Positions 2,615 to 11,627 of a DNA stretch of 11,627 nucleotides are shown here, in pieces. Below the pieces are notes generated by a model that searched no databases, had not been told where the DNA came from, and worked only from the letters and a program-made list of their open reading frames with translations. The position numbers were made by a program, and so were the translations under genes. Within the stretch, counting starts at the first letter, position 1. The number at the start of each line of letters is the position of its first letter. This DNA is from a virus (Duplodnaviria > Heunggongvirae > Uroviricota > Caudoviricetes), in IMG/VR virus record IMGVR_UViG_2531839179_000018, positions 1 to 11,627 of that record, one strand, 5' to 3'.

Positions 2615-3817
2615 TTAAATACTCGCTACGTTATACCAGGTGCCATTAATCAGTTTTTGCAGTGGTCGGTAATACACACCGTCAACGTTATCCGCTGAGT
2701 TACGGCCGGTATCCGATATCGCCATCCCTGACAGCCCGTGTCCCGAAGGTGCGCAAAATCTCCACGAAACGGTGTTACTGCCGGGGCTGTAATACATTTC
2801 ATGGCCATACCGTACATCCTGTACCCCCTCTGTTCGATATTTATAGCGGGCATCGAAGTTTCCGTAATTTAACGGAATTACCTGTCCGTTAACAGTGAAC
2901 ACTATGCTGTTATCCGGGTTTCTCTGGCTGAAAAAATGCCAGCCTGAATCATCACCAAGCTCTGCAACAACAGGCCTGGATGGATTACCCCACAAACAAA
3001 ACGCTGCATTTTTCGTGGAGTTGTTGGCGCTGGATAACGTGAATTTTCTGGCAGTTCCGGCCTGAATATTCTTAAAAGCAATAGCCACGCCATTCTGAAA
3101 ACGAAATACATGCTGTCCATTCGCATAAACATCCAGCAGACCATCGCCATTTTGTTTAAACCCGGTATCGTTATCTCCTAAAACGATTGAACTTCCACCT
3201 AACGCATTCGTCGTACCAATGCCAAGGCAACCATTAATGACGGCATTAACCAGAATATTTAGTGTATCCCATTTGAGATTCATCAGGTCTTTAACCCGGC
3301 CGCCAGCGAGGCGGTGTCTCCATTTGAAATATTCATTACCGTTATCCGCCGTTTCAAACCACATGTAGGAATCGGTGTCTGCATCCGAATCATTTTTAAA
3401 TCCAATCTTCGCCCAGTCAGTATTCCGAATCCAGGCGAGGATTGAGTCGTTTTCAAAAGTAAGTCCACCGGACAAGGTATCGCCTTCCTGATGAACATAG
3501 CGTTGATCTGACTGCTCTTTACTGTAAACCTGAAGATTATCCCGTGCCGTCCCTTTATTCTGAAGGTCTGACAGATTGTTCTTCTGCCGCAGGAATATCC
3601 TTTTCGGATCCTCAAGAAGATTTACCCAGCCCGCACTGTCGGAGCCTTCAGGATCGGTCAGGTTATCGTCTGTGGTATTCAGCCAGACCGCTGTTGTTGC
3701 GACTCCGGCGAGAATGGCTCCTTTTGCATATCCACCAATGGCCCCCGCAAAACCGGCATTATACGTGTACAAACCGCCAGCCTGGGCGAACCGTATTGCT
3801 GCGGTAATATCGTACAT
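2615..3817 (-). CDS. Tail fibre protein, major C-terminal portion (P2 gpH / Mu S-like); 3' segment of a gene interrupted at a G10 tract
   Basis: 400-aa ORF containing the conserved fibre C-terminal block ([32 protein letters not shown]...[10 protein letters not shown]). Its frame stays open upstream of the ATG through the homopolymer to a stop at 3872-3874. Confidence 0.8.
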
Positions 3818-3824
3818 CAGACCG

Positions 3825-4016
3825 TTAAAATCCTTGCCGTGTGGCGGTCCCCCCCCCCGCTGAGACCGCTGTCATGGTCGTCGGAGGAAAACCTGAATCA
3901 TACGCAGCATTACCGCTCTCTCTGGTCTGCTGTGTCGCCTTGTCCGGGATACGGTTTTTATCTCCGGTACTCGCAAAGGGGACCGCCAGCTGGCGGGGTT
4001 TATCACTGGCCTTCAT
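3825..4016 (-). CDS. Tail fibre protein, N-terminal segment (5' part of the interrupted fibre gene)
   Basis: 63-aa ORF with a strong Shine-Dalgarno (AAGGAG, 7-nt spacing) before its ATG. It reads through the G10 tract as Gly-Gly-Gly and terminates 8 codons later, in a different frame from the 400-aa ORF. Confidence 0.6.
3849..3858. repeat. Homopolymeric tract, C10 on the plus strand (G10 in the coding sense) inside the tail fibre gene
   Basis: Counted directly from sequence. It lies exactly at the frame change between ORF 3825-4016 and ORF 2615-3817. Confidence 0.95.
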
Positions 4017-4609: not shown

Positions 4610-5392
4610 TTATGCCTCCTGGAGTTTCACACTGATATCCGACACATCCAGAACCGGAATCTCATCTATCCCGAAAGTGACAGCCGTTGTCCATGACGAA
4701 CCGTCACGGCTCACAGTAAGGCCCAGAATATCAATATGTTCCGGATCGGTTTTGTAAATGCCGGCATAGTAGCGCCCGGCAGAGACAACAGAGGCAACTC
4801 TTGCCCGCAGACCACCATCTGTACCATTAAATGCGTCCAGCACGGATTGCTGTACCTGTCGGGTAATATCTGAAGGCAGGTAGTCACTTTTTTTCAGCGT
4901 CACACTGACATGCAGACTGACGGGTTTGAGTGTCTGCCAGCTGATCACGTATTCAGGATACGGCGGATCGTACTCCTTATCTGCAACAGTGAACGTTGTG
5001 TTGCCATTCATATCAATACCCGGCGGAGCCTTACGCCAGATGGCCGCCGCGATATCTGCCGGGCTGCCGCCGTACACGCCAACATAAAGCGAACCGGGTG
5101 TTAATGGATACTGACTGACTCCGGCTTTTTGTTCTGTTTTTTTCGGATTATGGGTGACGTAAACATCCACCACGTTTTCTACCGTGGAGAGTATTTCACC
5201 CCGGATGGCTTCCAGAATATTCCGGGCATTACGGGCAACTGAATTACGTCGGCGGTTTTCAAAGTCCGCACGGGTTTCCTCATCGCTGCCCGGCACACCG
5301 GCACGGGCGTTAGTGACACCTGACCAGCCAGGTATTGCCTTATAAATTTTATTCAGCGTCCCCACAGGACAGCCGACGGGGCCGGTGGACAA
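4610..5392 (-). CDS. Baseplate J-like protein, C-terminal portion (3' segment of an apparently frameshifted gene)
   Basis: 260-aa ORF that begins at TTG with no Shine-Dalgarno. Its frame is open a further ~20 codons upstream and overlaps the end of ORF 5395-5847; the two ORFs together (~410 aa) match baseplate-J size and position. Confidence 0.6.
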   Translation of the reverse strand: MSTGPVGCPVGTLNKIYKAIPGWSGVTNARAGVPGSDEETRADFENRRRNSVARNARNILEAIRGEILSTVENVVDVYVTHNPKKTEQKAGVSQYPLTPGSLYVGVYGGSPADIAAAIWRKAPPGIDMNGNTTFTVADKEYDPPYPEYVISWQTLKPVSLHVSVTLKKSDYLPSDITRQVQQSVLDAFNGTDGGLRARVASVVSAGRYYAGIYKTDPEHIDILGLTVSRDGSSWTTAVTFGIDEIPVLDVSDISVKLQEA

Positions 5393-5394
5393 AT

Positions 5395-5847
5395 TCAGAA
5401 ATACCGCATCAACCTGCCCTGATGCGCCGATAGTGACGTCTGACTGACATACTTATAACCGGCCTCATCCTGCGCCATACTGCTCGCCGGGATCAGCGTG
5501 CCAACCAGCCCGGTACAGGTCGCTGTTACTGTCGTACCTGTGGCCCCACGGCGCTCCAGGAAATAAATCCTGCCTATTGCATCCTGAAAGCGACCACTGA
5601 AAAAGTCAGGGTTGATCTGGTTAACGATATACAGCAACTGATCGTTTTTATCCGCAATAATGGCGCTTTCGCTGGATGCAAGTTGTCCCTGCGGACTGCT
5701 CAGACTGGTACTCATGGCCCCGCCCAGCGCCGCCGAAAAATCAGCAAGCCTGCCGCTCAGAATATCCGCTTCATCCGGCACATTCAGCCCGCTATCCGAA
5801 ATCTGTACAGCGGGCACTGCGGTAGAAAAAGATTTATTTTCACTCAT
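5395..5847 (-). CDS. Baseplate J-like protein, N-terminal portion (5' segment of an apparently frameshifted gene)
   Basis: 150-aa ORF whose start overlaps the upstream gene by 4 nt. It stops at TGA (5395-5397), 2 nt before the downstream ORF's first codon, which is in another frame. Confidence 0.6.
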   Translation of the reverse strand: MSENKSFSTAVPAVQISDSGLNVPDEADILSGRLADFSAALGGAMSTSLSSPQGQLASSESAIIADKNDQLLYIVNQINPDFFSGRFQDAIGRIYFLERRGATGTTVTATCTGLVGTLIPASSMAQDEAGYKYVSQTSLSAHQGRLMRYF

Positions 5848-6212: not shown

Positions 6213-6890
6213 TTACCGGGGTCCCTGCGTGGTTGAGCCGCCGGACTCAACGCCGCCGTGAACGTGGTTTCCAAAATCAATACCCCCGATGTTCGAACCG
6301 CCGGAAAGCCTGGACTGCCCGGTAACGTTAAGCCCCTTACTGACGGCGGTATCGCCGTTCAGCGCAATTTGTGGTGAGTTAACGGTGAAGCTTTTCGGCG
6401 CATTAATCACACCCTCAGGCGCGGATATCTCCACTTTCCAGGGAGATACAATCCGTATCTGGTTGTCATCAAATACCACAAACTGGACGGGATCACCGTT
6501 GAGCACGCCACCCAGCCAGATGGCATCAGCATAATTATGGGTACGCTTTGATCCCGGCATCGCAGCCTGACGCGTGGCTTTTACCGCACTGATATCCCGA
6601 TCGCAGATGGCAAGAAAACCGATATCCCCCACATGTGGCGGCATAATCACCGCATTACCGCCCCCCTGTAGTCGCCATACGGGAATGTTATAAATCACCT
6701 CATGTTCAACCGGGGAACCGTCTGCTGCAACGCCCATTACCATCGGTCGGGCCTCAATAAATCCCTCTTCCACGGCTACCACCCGTCCCAGAGTGATAAA
6801 CGCATGACGTCCGAGAAACTGCCGCAGCATAAAGTCCTGTGCATTGATTTCGCTGTTCACGTCTGTCGGGTTACTGAGTGGTTGTGCCAT
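6213..6890 (-). CDS. Baseplate central spike protein (P2 gpV / Mu gp45-like)
   Basis: 225-aa ORF of the right size and position for a spike protein, with a Gly-rich C-terminus carrying an HxH motif (GIDFGNHVHGGVESGG), as seen in spike apex domains. A Met at residue 21 is an alternative start lying after the upstream stop. Confidence 0.65.
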   Translation of the reverse strand: MAQPLSNPTDVNSEINAQDFMLRQFLGRHAFITLGRVVAVEEGFIEARPMVMGVAADGSPVEHEVIYNIPVWRLQGGGNAVIMPPHVGDIGFLAICDRDISAVKATRQAAMPGSKRTHNYADAIWLGGVLNGDPVQFVVFDDNQIRIVSPWKVEISAPEGVINAPKSFTVNSPQIALNGDTAVSKGLNVTGQSRLSGGSNIGGIDFGNHVHGGVESGGSTTQGPR

Positions 6891-7740
6891 TTTCTTCAGC
6901 CCTCATCATGGTACAGTTGGAACTCCACGGACCGCCCACGGTTCGCGAAGTAATGGTGTGTATCACCCCTGTGATCGTATAATCGCCCGTCATATCAGGC
7001 AGTGACGATTCCAGATGCGCTGGCCTGCCAGTAAAGAGATCGGGGCAGAATATCGTGGTGGCGCTGAGTCCGGTCATGGTGTAAACCGGATAGCCAGTCA
7101 GTCCGTGATCCGGCGAAATCAGTACCGGCGGAATATTCCGGTTCTGCCCTTTCGGCCAGATGGTGACTTTCTCCACATTCCCCAGATCAATGTTAATATC
7201 GGCGGCTGAAGCGACATCCAGCATTTGTTGTACAACATTACCGGAAAAATGCGGGTCAGACAGACTGCGGCTGACCCCCTGGTTTTCAAATCCAAGCCCG
7301 ACAGTTGACGCCAGCGCACGGATAATATCTGCAACCGCAACATCGCCCTTTGCGCTGAAATCTGCCGCCGGCTGATTACGCAGATTAAAATGAATCTGTC
7401 CTGTCAGAATGAGCGGAATATCCGGCGCCTGGTTGTAGTCGGCGTATGCATCAGTAATATCACCTTCAAAAATAAGCCGCCCGTCGGCCCACAGCCGCAT
7501 TTTATTTGCGGTACTCTGCTCCTGTCGCCACACACCGCGCCAGCTTAAATTCGTCATATGCGCCGGTGACATTCCCCAGATATACAGCGTGATTTGTGTA
7601 CCAGCCACCCCTCCATATACGGCAATACTGGCAAAACAGCTTGCGTCGGTAATGGTCAGCATATTGCCCTGGCCATTACCAAACGTTCGTCCGTCTGAAA
7701 GAGTGAACTCCACCGTTATTTTACGTTGTCTGTAGCTCAT
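6871..7740 (-). CDS. Tail/baseplate protein, possibly hub-like (Mu gp44 position)
   Basis: 289-aa ORF immediately upstream of the spike gene, with a start that overlaps the stop of the upstream fragment. Function is inferred from position only. Confidence 0.4.
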
Positions 7741-7959
7741 ATCAGTTCCTCAGGTAACAGCCAGTAGAGCCGGTACCGGGATCCGAGCCCCCGCCAGTCA
7801 GGGTCACTATTCCCCTCCGTGTCGGTAAAAAACAGGTCCCCCTGAAACGGCAGGTATCCGTACCGGACAATCCGGTTATTATTCAGACACAGCACGCCAT
7901 ACAGGCACGGTTCACCATTAACAATGATATCGATATACATCCCCGTAGTACGCTGATTC
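7737..7959 (-). pseudogene. 3' remnant (~74 codons) of a phage tail gene truncated by the IS66-family insertion
   Basis: The reading frame is open from the IS66 end at 7960 down to the stop at 7737-7739, and is translationally coupled to the next gene. The 5' part of the gene is replaced by IS sequence. Confidence 0.45.
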
Positions 7960-8897
7960 GTAAGCGCCCCGAGAAGTACGTAGCGTAAGGATTATTTTAC
8001 AGACGAGAAGTTCCAGGGAAGCAGTTCATGCACTTGGTTCGACGGCCAGTCATTGAGCTTCTCGATCACTTCGCGCAACCAGTCCTCCGGCTCCACTTCG
8101 TTCTGTTTGCAGGTGACCAGCAGACTGTAGATGATCGCCGCACTTTCTCCTCCCTTGTCTGAACCGAAAAAGAGATAATTTTTTCTTCCAACCGCCACCG
8201 ATCGTAACGCGTTTTCACCGATGTTGTTGTCTATTTCCACCCAGCCGTCACGACAGAACTCGTTCAGCGCATTCCAGTGATTCAGGATATAGTCGAACGC
8301 CTTCGCCATCTCCGCATGTTTCGACAGCGTTTTCCTCTGCAACTGTATCCAGTCGTACAACGACTGCATCAACTGGACGCTTCTGGCTTTTCTGACTGCA
8401 AGCCGTTCCTCTGCCGGACTGCCACGTATCTCCGCTTCTATATCGTATAACTCTGCTATCCGTCTGAGCGCTTCCTGAGTCATTTCTGTCGGACGGCGCA
8501 CATCCTCGTCATGGATTTTTCGGCGGGCGTGGGCCAGGCACCCGGCTTCCTTCACCCGGCCCGCTTCGTACAGTACGTTATAACCTGCATAGGCATCAGC
8601 CTGCAGTACGCCCTGATACTTTGCCAGGTGGAGCTGCGGATGTTCTCCTTTGCGATCTGCCGAATACGCGAACCAGACGGCTGCCGGCAGGGATGAACCC
8701 GCATTACGATCATCCCTGACGTATACCCACAGACGACCCGTTTTCGTCTTTCCGTTCCCCGGGGCCAGTACTTTCACCGGAGTGTCATCTGCGTGCACCT
8801 TTCCTGCCTCCAGAACATAGTCATTCAGCGCTATATACAGAGGACGGAGTTTGTCTGCCATTTCTGATACCCAGCGCACCATGGTATTACGGCTCAG
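7960..8897 (-). mobile_element. IS66-family insertion sequence, truncated: terminal repeat end plus the 3' part of tnpC
   Basis: The end begins with GTAAGCG at 7960, typical of IS66-family terminal repeats, and carries the tnpC C-terminal ORF. The element is cut at 8897/8898 by the IS3-family end. Confidence 0.7.
7992..8882 (-). pseudogene. IS66-family transposase TnpC, C-terminal fragment (N-terminal ~220 aa missing)
   Basis: 296-aa ORF carrying the C-terminal catalytic region of IS66 TnpC-type transposases (DDTPVKVL...QADAYAGY...HARRK). Full-length TnpC is about 520 aa. Confidence 0.8.
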
Positions 8898-9224
8898 TGA
8901 GGTAGCCTGAGTTTAACGGACACTCCTTCCTGAAATAGAATGGCATCAGAAGGAGCTAATAATGAGCAGAAAAACCCAACGTTACTCTAAAGAGTTCAAA
9001 GCCGAAGCTGTCAGAACGGTTCTTGAAAATCAACTTTCGATCAGTGAAGGCGCTTCCCGATTATCCCTTCCTGAAGGCACTTTAGGACAATGGGTTACCG
9101 CCGCCAGAAAAGGGCTCGGTACTCCTGGTTCCCGCACGGTGGCTGAACTGGAATCTGAAATTCTGCAACTGCGTAAGGCGTTAAATGAAGCTCGCCTTGA
9201 GCGAGATATATTAAAAAAAGCAAC
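8898..9224 (+). mobile_element. IS3-family element (IS600-like), 5' end only: left terminal repeat plus orfA up to the frameshift window
   Basis: The left end TGAGGTAGCCTGAGTTTAACGG resembles the IS911 left end. OrfA begins at 8962 with a Shine-Dalgarno, and the element is cut at 9224 by IS30. Confidence 0.7.
8962..9224 (+). pseudogene. IS3-family OrfA (IS600-like), truncated after ...DILKKAT by IS30
   Basis: Translation MSRKTQRYSKEFKAEAVRTVLENQLSISEGASRLS... has an HTH and leucine-zipper-like OrfA architecture. The six-frame ORF (8962-9330) runs artificially into the IS30 terminal repeat. Confidence 0.75.
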
Positions 9225-10445
9225 TGTAGATTCAATTGGTCAACGCAACAGTTATGTGAAAACATGGGGTTGCGGAGGTTTTTTGAATGAGACGAACATT
9301 TACAGCAGAGGAAAAAGCCTCTGTTTTTGAACTATGGAAGAACGGAACAGGCTTCAGTGAAATAGCGAATATCCTGGGTTCAAAACCCGGAACGATCTTC
9401 ACTATGTTAAGGGATACTGGCGGCATAAAACCCCATGAGCGTAAGCGGGCTGTAGCTCACCTGACACTGTCTGAGCGCGAGGAGATACGAGCTGGTTTGT
9501 CAGCCAAAATGAGCATTCGTGCGATAGCTACTGCGCTGAATCGCAGTCCTTCGACGATCTCACGTGAAGTTCAGCGTAATCGGGGCAGACGCTATTACAA
9601 AGCTGTTGATGCTAATAACCGAGCCAACAGAATGGCGAAAAGGCCAAAACCGTGCTTACTGGATCAAAATTTACCATTGCGAAAGCTTGTTCTGGAAAAG
9701 CTGGAGATGAAATGGTCTCCAGAGCAAATATCAGGATGGTTAAGGCGAACAAAACCACGTCAAAAAACGCTGCGAATATCACCTGAGACAATTTATAAAA
9801 CGCTGTACTTTCGTAGCCGTGAAGCGCTACACCACCTGAATATACAGCATCTGCGACGGTCGCATAGCCTTCGCCATGGCAGGCGTCATACCCGCAAAGG
9901 CGAAAGAGGTACGATTAACATAGTGAACGGAACACCAATTCACGAACGTTCCCGAAATATCGATAACAGACGCTCTCTGGGGCATTGGGAGGGCGATTTA
10001 GTCTCAGGTACAAAAAACTCTCATATAGCCACACTTGTAGACCGAAAATCACGTTATACGATCATCCTTAGACTCAGGGGCAAAGATTCTGTCTCAGTAA
10101 ATCAGGCTCTTACCGACAAATTCCTGAGTTTACCGTCAGAACTCAGAAAATCACTGACATGGGACAGAGGAATGGAACTGGCCAGACATCTAGAATTTAC
10201 TGTCAGCACCGGCGTTAAAGTTTACTTCTGCGATCCTCAGAGTCCTTGGCAGCGGGGAACAAATGAGAACACAAATGGGCTAATTCGGCAGTACTTTCCT
10301 AAAAAGACATGTCTTGCCCAATATACTCAACATGAACTAGATCTGGTTGCTGCTCAGCTAAACAACAGACCGAGAAAGACACTGAAGTTCAAAACACCGA
10401 AAGAGATAATTGAAAGGGGTGTTGCATTGACAGATTGAATCTACA
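9225..10445 (+). mobile_element. IS30, complete (1221 bp) with 26-bp imperfect terminal inverted repeats
   Basis: Left repeat 9225-9250 (tgtagattcaattggtcaacgcaaca) and right repeat 10420-10445 (reverse complement tgtagattcaatctgtcaatgcaaca) match at 23 of 26 positions. Length and single-transposase organisation match IS30. Confidence 0.9.
9287..10438 (+). CDS. insI: IS30 transposase (383 aa), intact
   Basis: Full-length ORF with an N-terminal HTH region and a DDE-type catalytic core; its stop lies inside the right terminal repeat. Confidence 0.9.
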
Positions 10446-10708
10446 GTAGCCTTTTTTAATATTTCATTCTCCATTTCAATGCGTTGTAGCTTTTTCCTCA
10501 GCTTACGTATTTCGATTTGTTCTGGTGTTATCGGAGAGGCTTTTGGTGTTTTGCCCTGACGCTCATCACGCAGTTGTTTGACCCATCTTGTCATTGTGGA
10601 AAGGCCAACATCCATAGCTTTGGCGGCATCTGCCACCGTGTATTTCTGGTCAACAACCAGTTGAGCGGATTCGCGTTTAAACTCTGCGCTAAAATTTCTT
10701 TTTTTCAT
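10446..10708 (-). pseudogene. insN: IS911 OrfA, truncated after ...EILKKAT by IS30
   Basis: Translation [51 protein letters not shown]... is the IS911 OrfA N-terminus as I recall it. The six-frame ORF (10358-10744) is a chimera that adds upstream codons and reads into IS30. Confidence 0.8.
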
Positions 10709-10780
10709 TGGAGCACCTGTGTTGTTCTGAGGTGAGCATATCACCTCTGTTCAGGTGGCCAAATTCAGTGTGCCACTTCA
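10446..10780 (-). mobile_element. IS911 (IS3 family), 5' end only, inverted relative to the IS600-like fragment
   Basis: On the minus strand the element begins TGAAGTGGCACACTGAATTTGGCCACC at 10780 and OrfA starts at 10708. It is cut at 10446 by the IS30 right end. Confidence 0.8.
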
Positions 10781-11627
10781 TATCTTAAACTACCGGAATG
10801 AACTGCTGCATGGAGAAACGCTTTACCTAGATAATCCAAGATCCAACAAAAAAGGAAGAACCGTGCGCACAGTTGATAACTATATCGCCCTGCTCTGTTC
10901 GTTGTTACGTTTTGCGTATCAGTCGGGATTTATATCAACCAAACCATTTGAAGGAGTAAAAAAATTACAGCGAAACAGAATAAAGCCTGACCCGTTATCT
11001 AAAACAGAATTCAATGCATTAATGGAAAGTGAAAAAGGACAGAGCCAAAACTTGTGGAAATTTGCCGTTTACTCCGGGCTTCGTCACGGGGAACTGGCAG
11101 CTCTGGCGTGGGAGGATGTGGATTTCGAGAAGGGAATTGTGAATGTCAGAAGAAACCTGACGATACTTGATATGTTCGGTCCCCCAAAAACAAATGCCGG
11201 GATCCGGACGGTAACATTACTGCAGCCGGCTCTTGAAGCACTGAAGGAGCAATACAAACTGACCGGGCATCATCGCAAAAGCGAAATCACTTTTTATCAT
11301 CGGGAGTACGGCAGAACTGAAAAGCAAAAACTGCATTTTGTTTTCATGCCCAGGGTGTGTAACGAAAAACAGAAACCTTATTACTCGGTAAGCAGTTTGG
11401 GTGCAAGATGGAATGCAGCAGTAAAACGTGCTGGTATTCGCCGCCGTAATCCGTACCATACGCGACATACTTTTGCCTGCTGGCTGTTGACGGCAGGAGC
11501 GAACCCGGCATTTATAGCCAGCCAGATGGGGCATGAAACTGCGCAAATGGTGTATGAAATTTACGGTATGTGGATTGATGACATGAACGACGAACAGATA
11601 GCCATGTTGAATGCGCGGTTATCGTAG
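10781..11627 (+). pseudogene. Tyrosine recombinase (phage integrase), 5'-truncated; C-terminal catalytic domain present
   Basis: C-terminus carries catalytic-domain motifs (HTRHTFA...MGHETAQMVYEIY with the tyrosine nucleophile). The N-terminal domains are absent; sequence upstream of 10781 is the IS911 end, and the ORF's apparent start (GTG at 10755) lies inside it. Confidence 0.8.

Follow-up and report, generated by a model that had tools for sequence, protein, structure and literature searches.

In the cyanophage Pam3, six monomers of gp18 wedge between the hub-spike complex and the wedge ring of the baseplate, and the protein folds into a two-layered beta-sheet followed by a C-terminal helix (PMC9942802). 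Its gene belongs to a module that runs from gp17 to gp24 (PMC9942802), and the same gene order is found in the prophages considered here. The family is already curated both in Pfam (PF22479, Pam3_gp18, "Cyanophage baseplate Pam3 plug gp18") and at NCBI. In Shigella, genome degradation through the expansion of IS600 and IS911, and through deletion between homologous IS copies, has been documented (Hawkey et al., 2020; PMC7373316). ISSfl3 and IS30 lie outside the five common IS of that study, which does not mention the present locus and in whose main text the terms "prophage" and "IS66" are absent.

An intact prophage with a Pam3-like module occupies the Rac attachment region of Escherichia coli CFSAN029787 (NZ_CP011416.1, 4676080-4720300; about 44 kb), between sitABCD/uspF and ttcA, and served as the reference. 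Its tail genes follow the order tube-initiator-like, plug, hub, spike, sheath initiator and wedge, in agreement with gp17-gp23 of Pam3. The window, by which we mean the whole 11,627-nucleotide stretch of viral DNA analysed, is very probably what is left of such a prophage, once about 44 kb long, that integrated beside sitABCD at the Rac/ttcA site in Shigella dysenteriae and was reduced by stepwise IS-driven decay. The prophage combines a lambdoid early region with a contractile-tail module of the E217/Pam3 type. Window and reference share the same neighbors, with sitABCD and the tail-fibre end on one side and intR on the other, and are 96-100% identical on both sides of a cluster of IS elements, the two flanks of the window being collinear and in the same orientation within the one reference prophage. 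They differ in that the reference retains 35,779 bp absent from the window and has intact baseplate J and fibre genes, while carrying an IS2 insertion of its own and a frameshifted tape-measure-like gene. The features of the window are collected in Table 1.

Table 1. Phage-derived and IS-derived features of the window, with the basis of each assignment.
Feature	Coordinates	Strand	Basis or remark
Fibre and fibre-assembly genes			PGAP names and Pfam
Baseplate J gene			PGAP name
Wedge protein gene			DUF2612 / Phage_Wedge1
Sheath initiator gene			PF10934
Spike gene			GpV Apex motif
Baseplate hub gene, 289 aa, intact	6871..7740	-	PHROG 196, E 5.5e-64; PF22759 E217_GP41; PGAP "baseplate hub protein"
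ATGA overlap, hub start / plug stop	7737..7740	-	Sequence; also in intact prophage
3' remnant of phage baseplate plug gene	7737..7959	-	Identity to WP_000890114.1; PF22479; PHROG 349
ISSfl3 (IS66 family), 3' 938 bp: right terminal repeat and last 301 of 533 tnpC codons	7960..8897	-	Identity, Pfam
tnpC stop TAA	7992..7994	-	In frame with plug remnant, 32 nt inside IS end
IS600 left end: terminal repeat TGAGGTAGCC... and 5' part of orfA; cuts ISSfl3 tnpC	8898..9224	+	HTH_Tnp_1 domain
Complete IS30, 1221 bp, 383-aa transposase	9225..10445	+	Terminal repeats TGTAGATTCAAT / ATTGAATCTACA
IS911 left end: terminal repeat ...GTGCCACTTCA and 5' part of orfA	10446..10780	-	Inverted relative to IS600 part
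3' two-thirds of Rac-type integrase gene intR	10781..11627	+	Phage_integrase domain; far edge of missing segment

Homology to the reference prophage is broken exactly at 7959/7960 and at 10780/10781, and everything between these points (7960-10780) is IS material. The first of these breaks had drawn attention in a sequence-only reading, which held that an IS66 end (GTAAGCG...) at 7960 interrupts a gene, and comparison with other genomes bears this out: in megablast searches the match to the intact prophage stops at 7959, and independent copies of ISSfl3 match from 7960 onward. On the plus strand the sequence reads ...ACGCTGATTC up to 7959 and GTAAGCGCCCCGAGAAG... from 7960 (in a longer reading, ...GTAGTACGCTGATTC and GTAAGCGCCCCGAGAAGTACGTAGCGTAAGGATTATTTTAC...), so split that GTAAGCGCCCCGAGAAG begins where phage homology stops. 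The terminal repeat starts GTAAGCG, which we take to be typical of the IS66 family. When the interval 7400-8400 was compared with complete E. coli genomes by megablast, the portion up to 7959 matched chromosomal prophages at up to 100% identity, with "baseplate hub protein" and "phage baseplate plug family protein" annotated left of the break, and the portion from 7960 (7960-8400) matched "IS66-like element ISSfl3 family transposase", as found in Shigella and enteroinvasive E. coli (EIEC), at 99.3-99.6% nucleotide identity. No E. coli record in the complete-genome megablast spanned 7959/7960 (0 records covered at least 80% of the junction query), and an exact search of a one-genome-per-species collection, in which Shigella is presumably not listed apart from E. 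coli, with the 40-nt junction TCCCCGTAGTACGCTGATTCGTAAGCGCCCCGAGAAGTAC returned no match. All genes around the break lie on the minus strand.

The interrupted gene, which the sequence-only reading had described as a tail gene with some 74 codons left and had proposed to name by protein comparison, encodes the baseplate plug protein. The remnant, read from 7959 to 7737, is 223 nt long (74 codons and one extra nucleotide) and ends in TGA; its product is 100% identical to residues 27-100 of the 100-aa protein WP_000890114.1 of E. coli CFSAN029787. The intact CFSAN029787 gene has 303 nt, which places the IS entry point after nt 80, in codon 27; of the 100 codons the window retains the final 74 and the stop, and the opening 80 nt, ATG included, are absent. 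Against PF22479 the remnant scored 56.1 bits (E 5.6e-15; curated cut-off, 24.2 bits), with a match spanning profile positions 30-99 of 101, and against PHROG 349 it gave an E-value of 2e-19, so that its similarity to phage proteins, the lack of which would have suggested non-coding spacer, is clear. Its position agrees with this assignment: as Pam3 gp18 lies between gp17 and gp19, the plug gene lies between a tube-initiator-like gene and the hub gene, the hub being present in the window and the upstream neighbor, annotated "phage baseplate protein", in the intact reference. A blastn search in distant mode with the 223-nt remnant found no match in a phage collection; the identification comes instead from prophages of E. 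coli and from protein profiles. For the 67-aa ORF of the remnant, the sole match in an exact-protein look-up was one short contig that ends at the junction, and its sequence is not in the clustered protein collection.

Unlike Pam3 gp18, the window's plug protein lacks its first 26 residues and its start codon, and, given the fold of gp18, the loss probably removes the first beta-strands. A complete plug coding sequence with a start of its own is absent from the window. With these losses, the copy is a pseudogene, very probably a dead gene fragment.

What lies to the right of the break is likewise a fragment. A full copy of ISSfl3 (locus L008) ends ...GGGGCGCTTAC (longer reading, ...TAATCCTTACGCTACGTACTTCTCGGGGCGCTTAC), at the same terminus as that found at 7960, with the same tnpC C-terminus and a stop codon placed 32 nt inside it; GTAAGCG opens the left end of this copy as well, and its tnpC has 1602 nt, or 533 codons. 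The window differs from it in holding only the 3' 938 bp. The tnpC fragment matches DDE_Tnp_IS66 (PF03050, E 3.2e-82, profile positions 42-283 of 284) and the IS66 C-terminal element (PF13817, E 1.4e-13), matches that concern the C-terminal 296-301 residues only. Instead of the tnpA-tnpB-tnpC organisation between two terminal repeats that marks a complete IS66 element, the window has a piece without tnpA, tnpB, the first 232 tnpC codons and the left repeat, cut at 8897/8898 by IS600; with these parts gone, it cannot transpose. Insertion of an IS66-type element is expected to produce an 8-bp target duplication. In the window the other end of the element and its flank are deleted, and searches turned up no genome whose plug gene carries a complete ISSfl3, so that the duplication (candidate GCTGATTC) is not visible; for simple transposition, the reciprocal junction would consist of the ISSfl3 left end and GCTGATTCAGGCGAATGG. 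The flanks of the full copy at L008 show no matching 8-bp duplication. A prior origin of the ISSfl3/IS600 junction on a large E. coli plasmid was considered and rejected, ISSfl3 being broken at another place there.

The remainder of the cluster consists of IS600, IS30 and IS911 sequences. IS30 carries the PGAP name "IS30-like element IS30 family transposase" and is placed after the homologous ...ILKKAT codon of both the IS600 orfA and the IS911 orfA. The segment at 10446..10780 is presumably IS911, an assignment that draws on the repeat and InsN sequences of that element and on the context of the K-12 annotation. Its terminus abuts intR, the junction reading ...CACTTCA and then TATCTTAAACTACC. 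E. coli K-12 has, in KpLE2 beside fecE, the same 1,883-bp IS600'-IS30-IS911' chimera with the same internal junctions and 99.6% identity; the K-12 chimera differs in its flanking DNA and has no association with ISSfl3 or with a Rac-site prophage. Movement of the IS600'-IS30-IS911' block as a single transposon was rejected, given that the repeats at its two outer ends do not resemble each other and that its flanks derive from separate loci.

The sequence-only reading proposed that the deletion be sized against an intact homologous prophage. Measured in this way, the window lacks positions 7675-43453 of the CFSAN029787 locus (L002), or 35,779 bp, a figure that includes the reference's own IS2, so that the phage DNA lost comes to about 34.4 kb, to which any difference in the Shigella ancestor has to be added; the reference being an E. 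coli genome, the number of bases lost in that ancestor may differ by about 1.3 kb or more. The missing interval holds the 5' end of the plug gene together with the tube-initiator-like, tape-measure-like, tube and sheath genes; the neck, head, terminase and lysis genes and four tRNA genes; and the replication and immunity genes, the recE/gam region and xisR. On the far side of the loss, intR is 100% identical to that of CFSAN029787 from 10780/10781 and lacks its first 388-389 of 1236 nt, its stop forming the end of the window. The tail genes that remain are not all whole. Two lesions set them apart from the E. coli reference: baseplate J has lost 4 bp after 5439 and is thereby split into two ORFs, of 150 and 260 aa, and the tail-fibre gene is thrown out of frame by a run of ten C residues at 3849-3858. 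Lacking its sheath, tube and tape-measure genes, the prophage can no longer build a tail.

Two further complete chromosomes of S. dysenteriae, CP027027.1 and CP026824.1, allow the ISSfl3 insertion and the large loss to be placed in order. Both are 100% identical to the window over 7683-10340, an interval that takes in the plug remnant, the ISSfl3 fragment, the left part of IS600 and most of IS30, and both have the same truncated tnpC ORF. Past IS30, IS600 resumes in these sister genomes with orfB and its right end, and directly against it stands the sheath gene, at position 11707 of the reference locus. The sisters keep at least 6.6 kb more phage DNA than the window, the locus examined stopping there, and lack only positions 7675-11706, or 4,032 bp. 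The plug, ISSfl3, IS600 and IS30 junctions are thus common to all three, yet no more than 4,032 bp are missing from the sisters; the insertion of ISSfl3 therefore preceded the large loss. Judging from these genomes, the loss took at least two steps, and the 36-kb loss is a later, lineage-specific one whose new junction lies on the IS30/IS911/intR side. The view that position 7960 is the boundary of an IS-mediated deletion accordingly stands insofar as it marks the edge of the 35,779-bp loss, and has to be amended insofar as the insertion junction is older than the large deletion. Look-ups by exact sequence assign the ORFs of the window to S. dysenteriae, and the IS911/intR hybrid ORF recurs in the S. 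dysenteriae draft AAMJ02000020.1, with ttcA and dbpA downstream.

These comparisons suggest a history in four steps. ISSfl3 would first have transposed into codon 27 of the 100 codons of the plug gene, creating the 7959/7960 junction. IS600 carrying IS30 would then have come to lie inside ISSfl3 tnpC, at 8897/8898. In a third step the 5' part of ISSfl3, the first 80 nt of the plug gene and neighboring tail genes would have been lost, giving the state of the sister genomes, in which 4,032 bp are missing. Finally, in the window's lineage, IS30 would have become joined to the inverted IS911 left end that abuts intR, bringing the total loss to 35,779 bp. The fixed points of this history, namely the segment identities, the junction positions, the size of the loss and the left junctions held in common with the sisters, are observed; from them we infer the order of the second and third steps and the mechanism of the fourth.

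For the fourth step, homologous recombination between this IS30 and a second, directly oriented IS30 residing within an IS911 in intR is probably the mechanism. The occurrence of the same IS600'-IS30-IS911' chimera in K-12 indicates that copies of IS30 in both contexts exist to recombine. The partner is hypothetical: a genome with IS911::IS30 at nt 388 of intR was looked for without success, the only matches to the hybrid ORFs being this IS911/intR junction again, in AAMJ02000020.1, and E. coli loci unrelated to it.

Alternatively, a transposase might have made the large deletion, through one-ended or intramolecular transposition of an IS911 or IS600 end (adjacent deletion), that started either in the IS cluster and ran into intR, or at an IS in intR and ran into ISSfl3. 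Such an event would yield the same final structure. The outer ends of 8898-10780 are intact termini of the IS3 family that abut unrelated interiors (ISSfl3 tnpC and intR) and share no target duplication, which is exactly what adjacent deletions leave behind, and the junction between the IS600 right end and the sheath gene in the sister genomes looks alike. This explanation is nevertheless considered unlikely, if worth keeping in mind, as the IS911 fragment has no orfB and the block joins the left ends of two different IS3-family elements, whose terminal repeats are unlike each other. The IS911 end must then have come with IS30, for which recombination is the simpler route, and the identical chimera at an unrelated K-12 locus also points to exchange between IS30 copies.

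A different question is whether the junction retains any function. The sequence-only reading noted that the tnpC stop is in frame with the plug remnant, and this is correct: the remnant's stop follows the TAA at 7994-7992 by 255 nt (85 codons), in one shared frame that contains no other stop between the two, and the minus-strand reading from 8000 ends ...LLPEELI and a stop codon at 7737-7739. The shared frame has no evident meaning, however. Its chance, estimated as 1/3 for the frame multiplied by about 0.6 for an open linker of 11 codons, is roughly 1-in-5, so that the in-frame stop is a coincidence not beyond chance expectation and without function. A fusion or read-through product of TnpC and plug was rejected on the grounds of the intervening TAA and the chance nature of the frame.

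The same reading considered the remnant to be still translationally coupled to the hub gene. An overlapping start and stop is indeed present, the hub ATG (7740-7738) sharing bases with the remnant's TGA (7739-7737). The same 4-base ATGA overlap is found in the intact CFSAN029787 prophage; it is thus the native gene arrangement, untouched sequence that is a by-product without function here, and there is no reason to think that selection maintains it. Coupling requires that the remnant be translated, and the remnant is without its native start codon and ribosome-binding site, so that the claim of coupling goes beyond what the overlap can support. The sole start left is an internal ATG at 7940 which ACGGGG abuts directly, and without spacing this offers no usable Shine-Dalgarno sequence.

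A functional arrangement might still be imagined, in which read-through from the ISSfl3 end by way of tnpC and the linker feeds ribosomes into the remnant and the ATGA overlap sustains expression of the hub and of the baseplate genes that follow it, so that the tail module would be a domesticated one. The single frame shared by the tnpC stop and the remnant, the intact overlap, and the intact hub, spike and sheath-initiator ORFs of the window would fit with such an arrangement. It is very improbable, given the TAA that intervenes and a shared frame expected by chance about once in five cases. Moreover, an oppositely oriented IS600 separates tnpC both from the 5' part that belongs to it and from the promoter region of the IS, no promoter-like site was seen on the minus strand from 9100 to 7746, and the remnant's one start has GGGG directly against it. 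The sheath, tube, tape-measure and tube-initiator genes are deleted, and the baseplate J and fibre genes are frameshifted. Slimmer still is the prospect that the block of plug remnant, hub, spike and sheath initiator has been kept, and is expressed by read-through from the IS cluster with ribosomes passing from the ATG at 7940 over the ATGA overlap into the hub, as a domesticated baseplate fragment. The hub, spike and sheath-initiator ORFs are intact also in CP027027.1, one of the two sister genomes examined; in CP026824.1 the spike and sheath-initiator ORFs appear to be broken into shorter pieces.

An assembly artefact, a mis-join at a repeated IS, might be suspected in IS-rich Shigella genomes, which are prone to mis-assembly, the more so as one short-read contig terminates exactly at the 7959/7960 junction, but this is the least credible explanation of all and was rejected because independent assemblies agree, the 7959/7960 and 8897/8898 junctions being identical in the two other complete chromosomes (100% across 7959/7960) and the IS911/intR junction being present in the independent draft AAMJ02000020.1.

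The four facts on which the sequence-only reading was built are all present in the sequence where it placed them, and the evidence supports its interpretation with three refinements: the ISSfl3 junction is an older insertion scar, the in-frame stop is coincidental, and the overlap does not amount to demonstrated coupling. ISSfl3 is a catalogued IS, and the interruption of genes by IS elements and deletion between copies of them form the documented route of genome degradation in Shigella (PMC7373316). The IS66/plug junction makes no open question testable. Beyond annotation the significance is small. Exact coordinates are now available for a nested IS cluster and the pseudogene fragments that flank it, the disrupted gene has been named as that of the baseplate plug, and the loss has been sized at about 36 kb. 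The locus illustrates neatly, step by step, how IS elements erode a prophage in Shigella, which is already well documented.

The IS cluster between the baseplate plug remnant and the truncated Rac-type integrase gene, intR, contains a chimera in which the left part of IS600, a complete IS30 and an inverted left part of IS911 follow one another (table). Sequence comparison revealed the same chimera at 99.6% identity, with identical internal junctions, adjoining fecE in the KpLE2 element of E. coli K-12, a locus that is unrelated to the one in the window. Furthermore, IS30 lies after the '...ILKKAT' codon, which is homologous in the orfA genes of IS600 and IS911 (both IS3-family), in each of these elements. 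The recurrence of the chimera at the K-12 locus, together with this shared insertion point, suggests that there is a hot spot for IS30 and that IS30 x IS30 exchange has occurred repeatedly.

Coordinates of the IS chimera, the hybrid ORF and the tRNA genes of the comparator prophage (L002, the Rac-site prophage of E. coli CFSAN029787)
Feature	Size	Position	Description
IS600-IS30-IS911 chimera	1,883 bp	window 8898-10780	IS600 left part, complete IS30, inverted IS911 left part
Hybrid ORF	290 aa	window 10755-11627	GTG start; IS911 terminal repeat into truncated intR
Four tRNA genes (Val, Thr, Arg, Ile)		L002 25189-25495	between late-regulator region and lysis genes

The GTG start codon of the hybrid ORF is located inside the IS911 terminal repeat, and its reading frame enters truncated intR, giving an IS end/integrase hybrid that is without the N-terminal 129 residues of IntR. 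This hybrid ORF was called as a gene in the S. dysenteriae draft AAMJ02000020.1.

The 'intact' prophage of CFSAN029787 used for comparison is itself partly decayed, as its tape-measure-like lytic transglycosylase gene is frameshifted and its DUF977 gene holds IS2. Relative to this prophage, the window is missing 4 bp (CTGA) at 5439-5440. This deletion breaks the baseplate J/gp47 gene into two ORFs, one of 150 aa (5395-5847), whose product appears in the annotation of many S. dysenteriae genomes, and one of 260 aa (4610-5392).

The tail-fibre gene is frameshifted, yielding ORFs 3825-4016 and 2615-3817, by a run of ten C residues at 3849-3858, where the E. coli reference has TATACCTCC. In the sister S. 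dysenteriae chromosomes CP027027.1 and CP026824.1, an IS110-family element is found within exactly this run, which in the window may represent either the target site before insertion or a footprint left by excision. Towards the C-terminal end of the tail-fibre gene (400 aa), ~195 bp (2894-3088) failed to align to the reference, which has just 27 bp at the equivalent place, and identity in the flanking region (121-2893) falls to 96%. This unaligned stretch and the reduced flanking identity suggest that the region is mosaic and concerned with host range.
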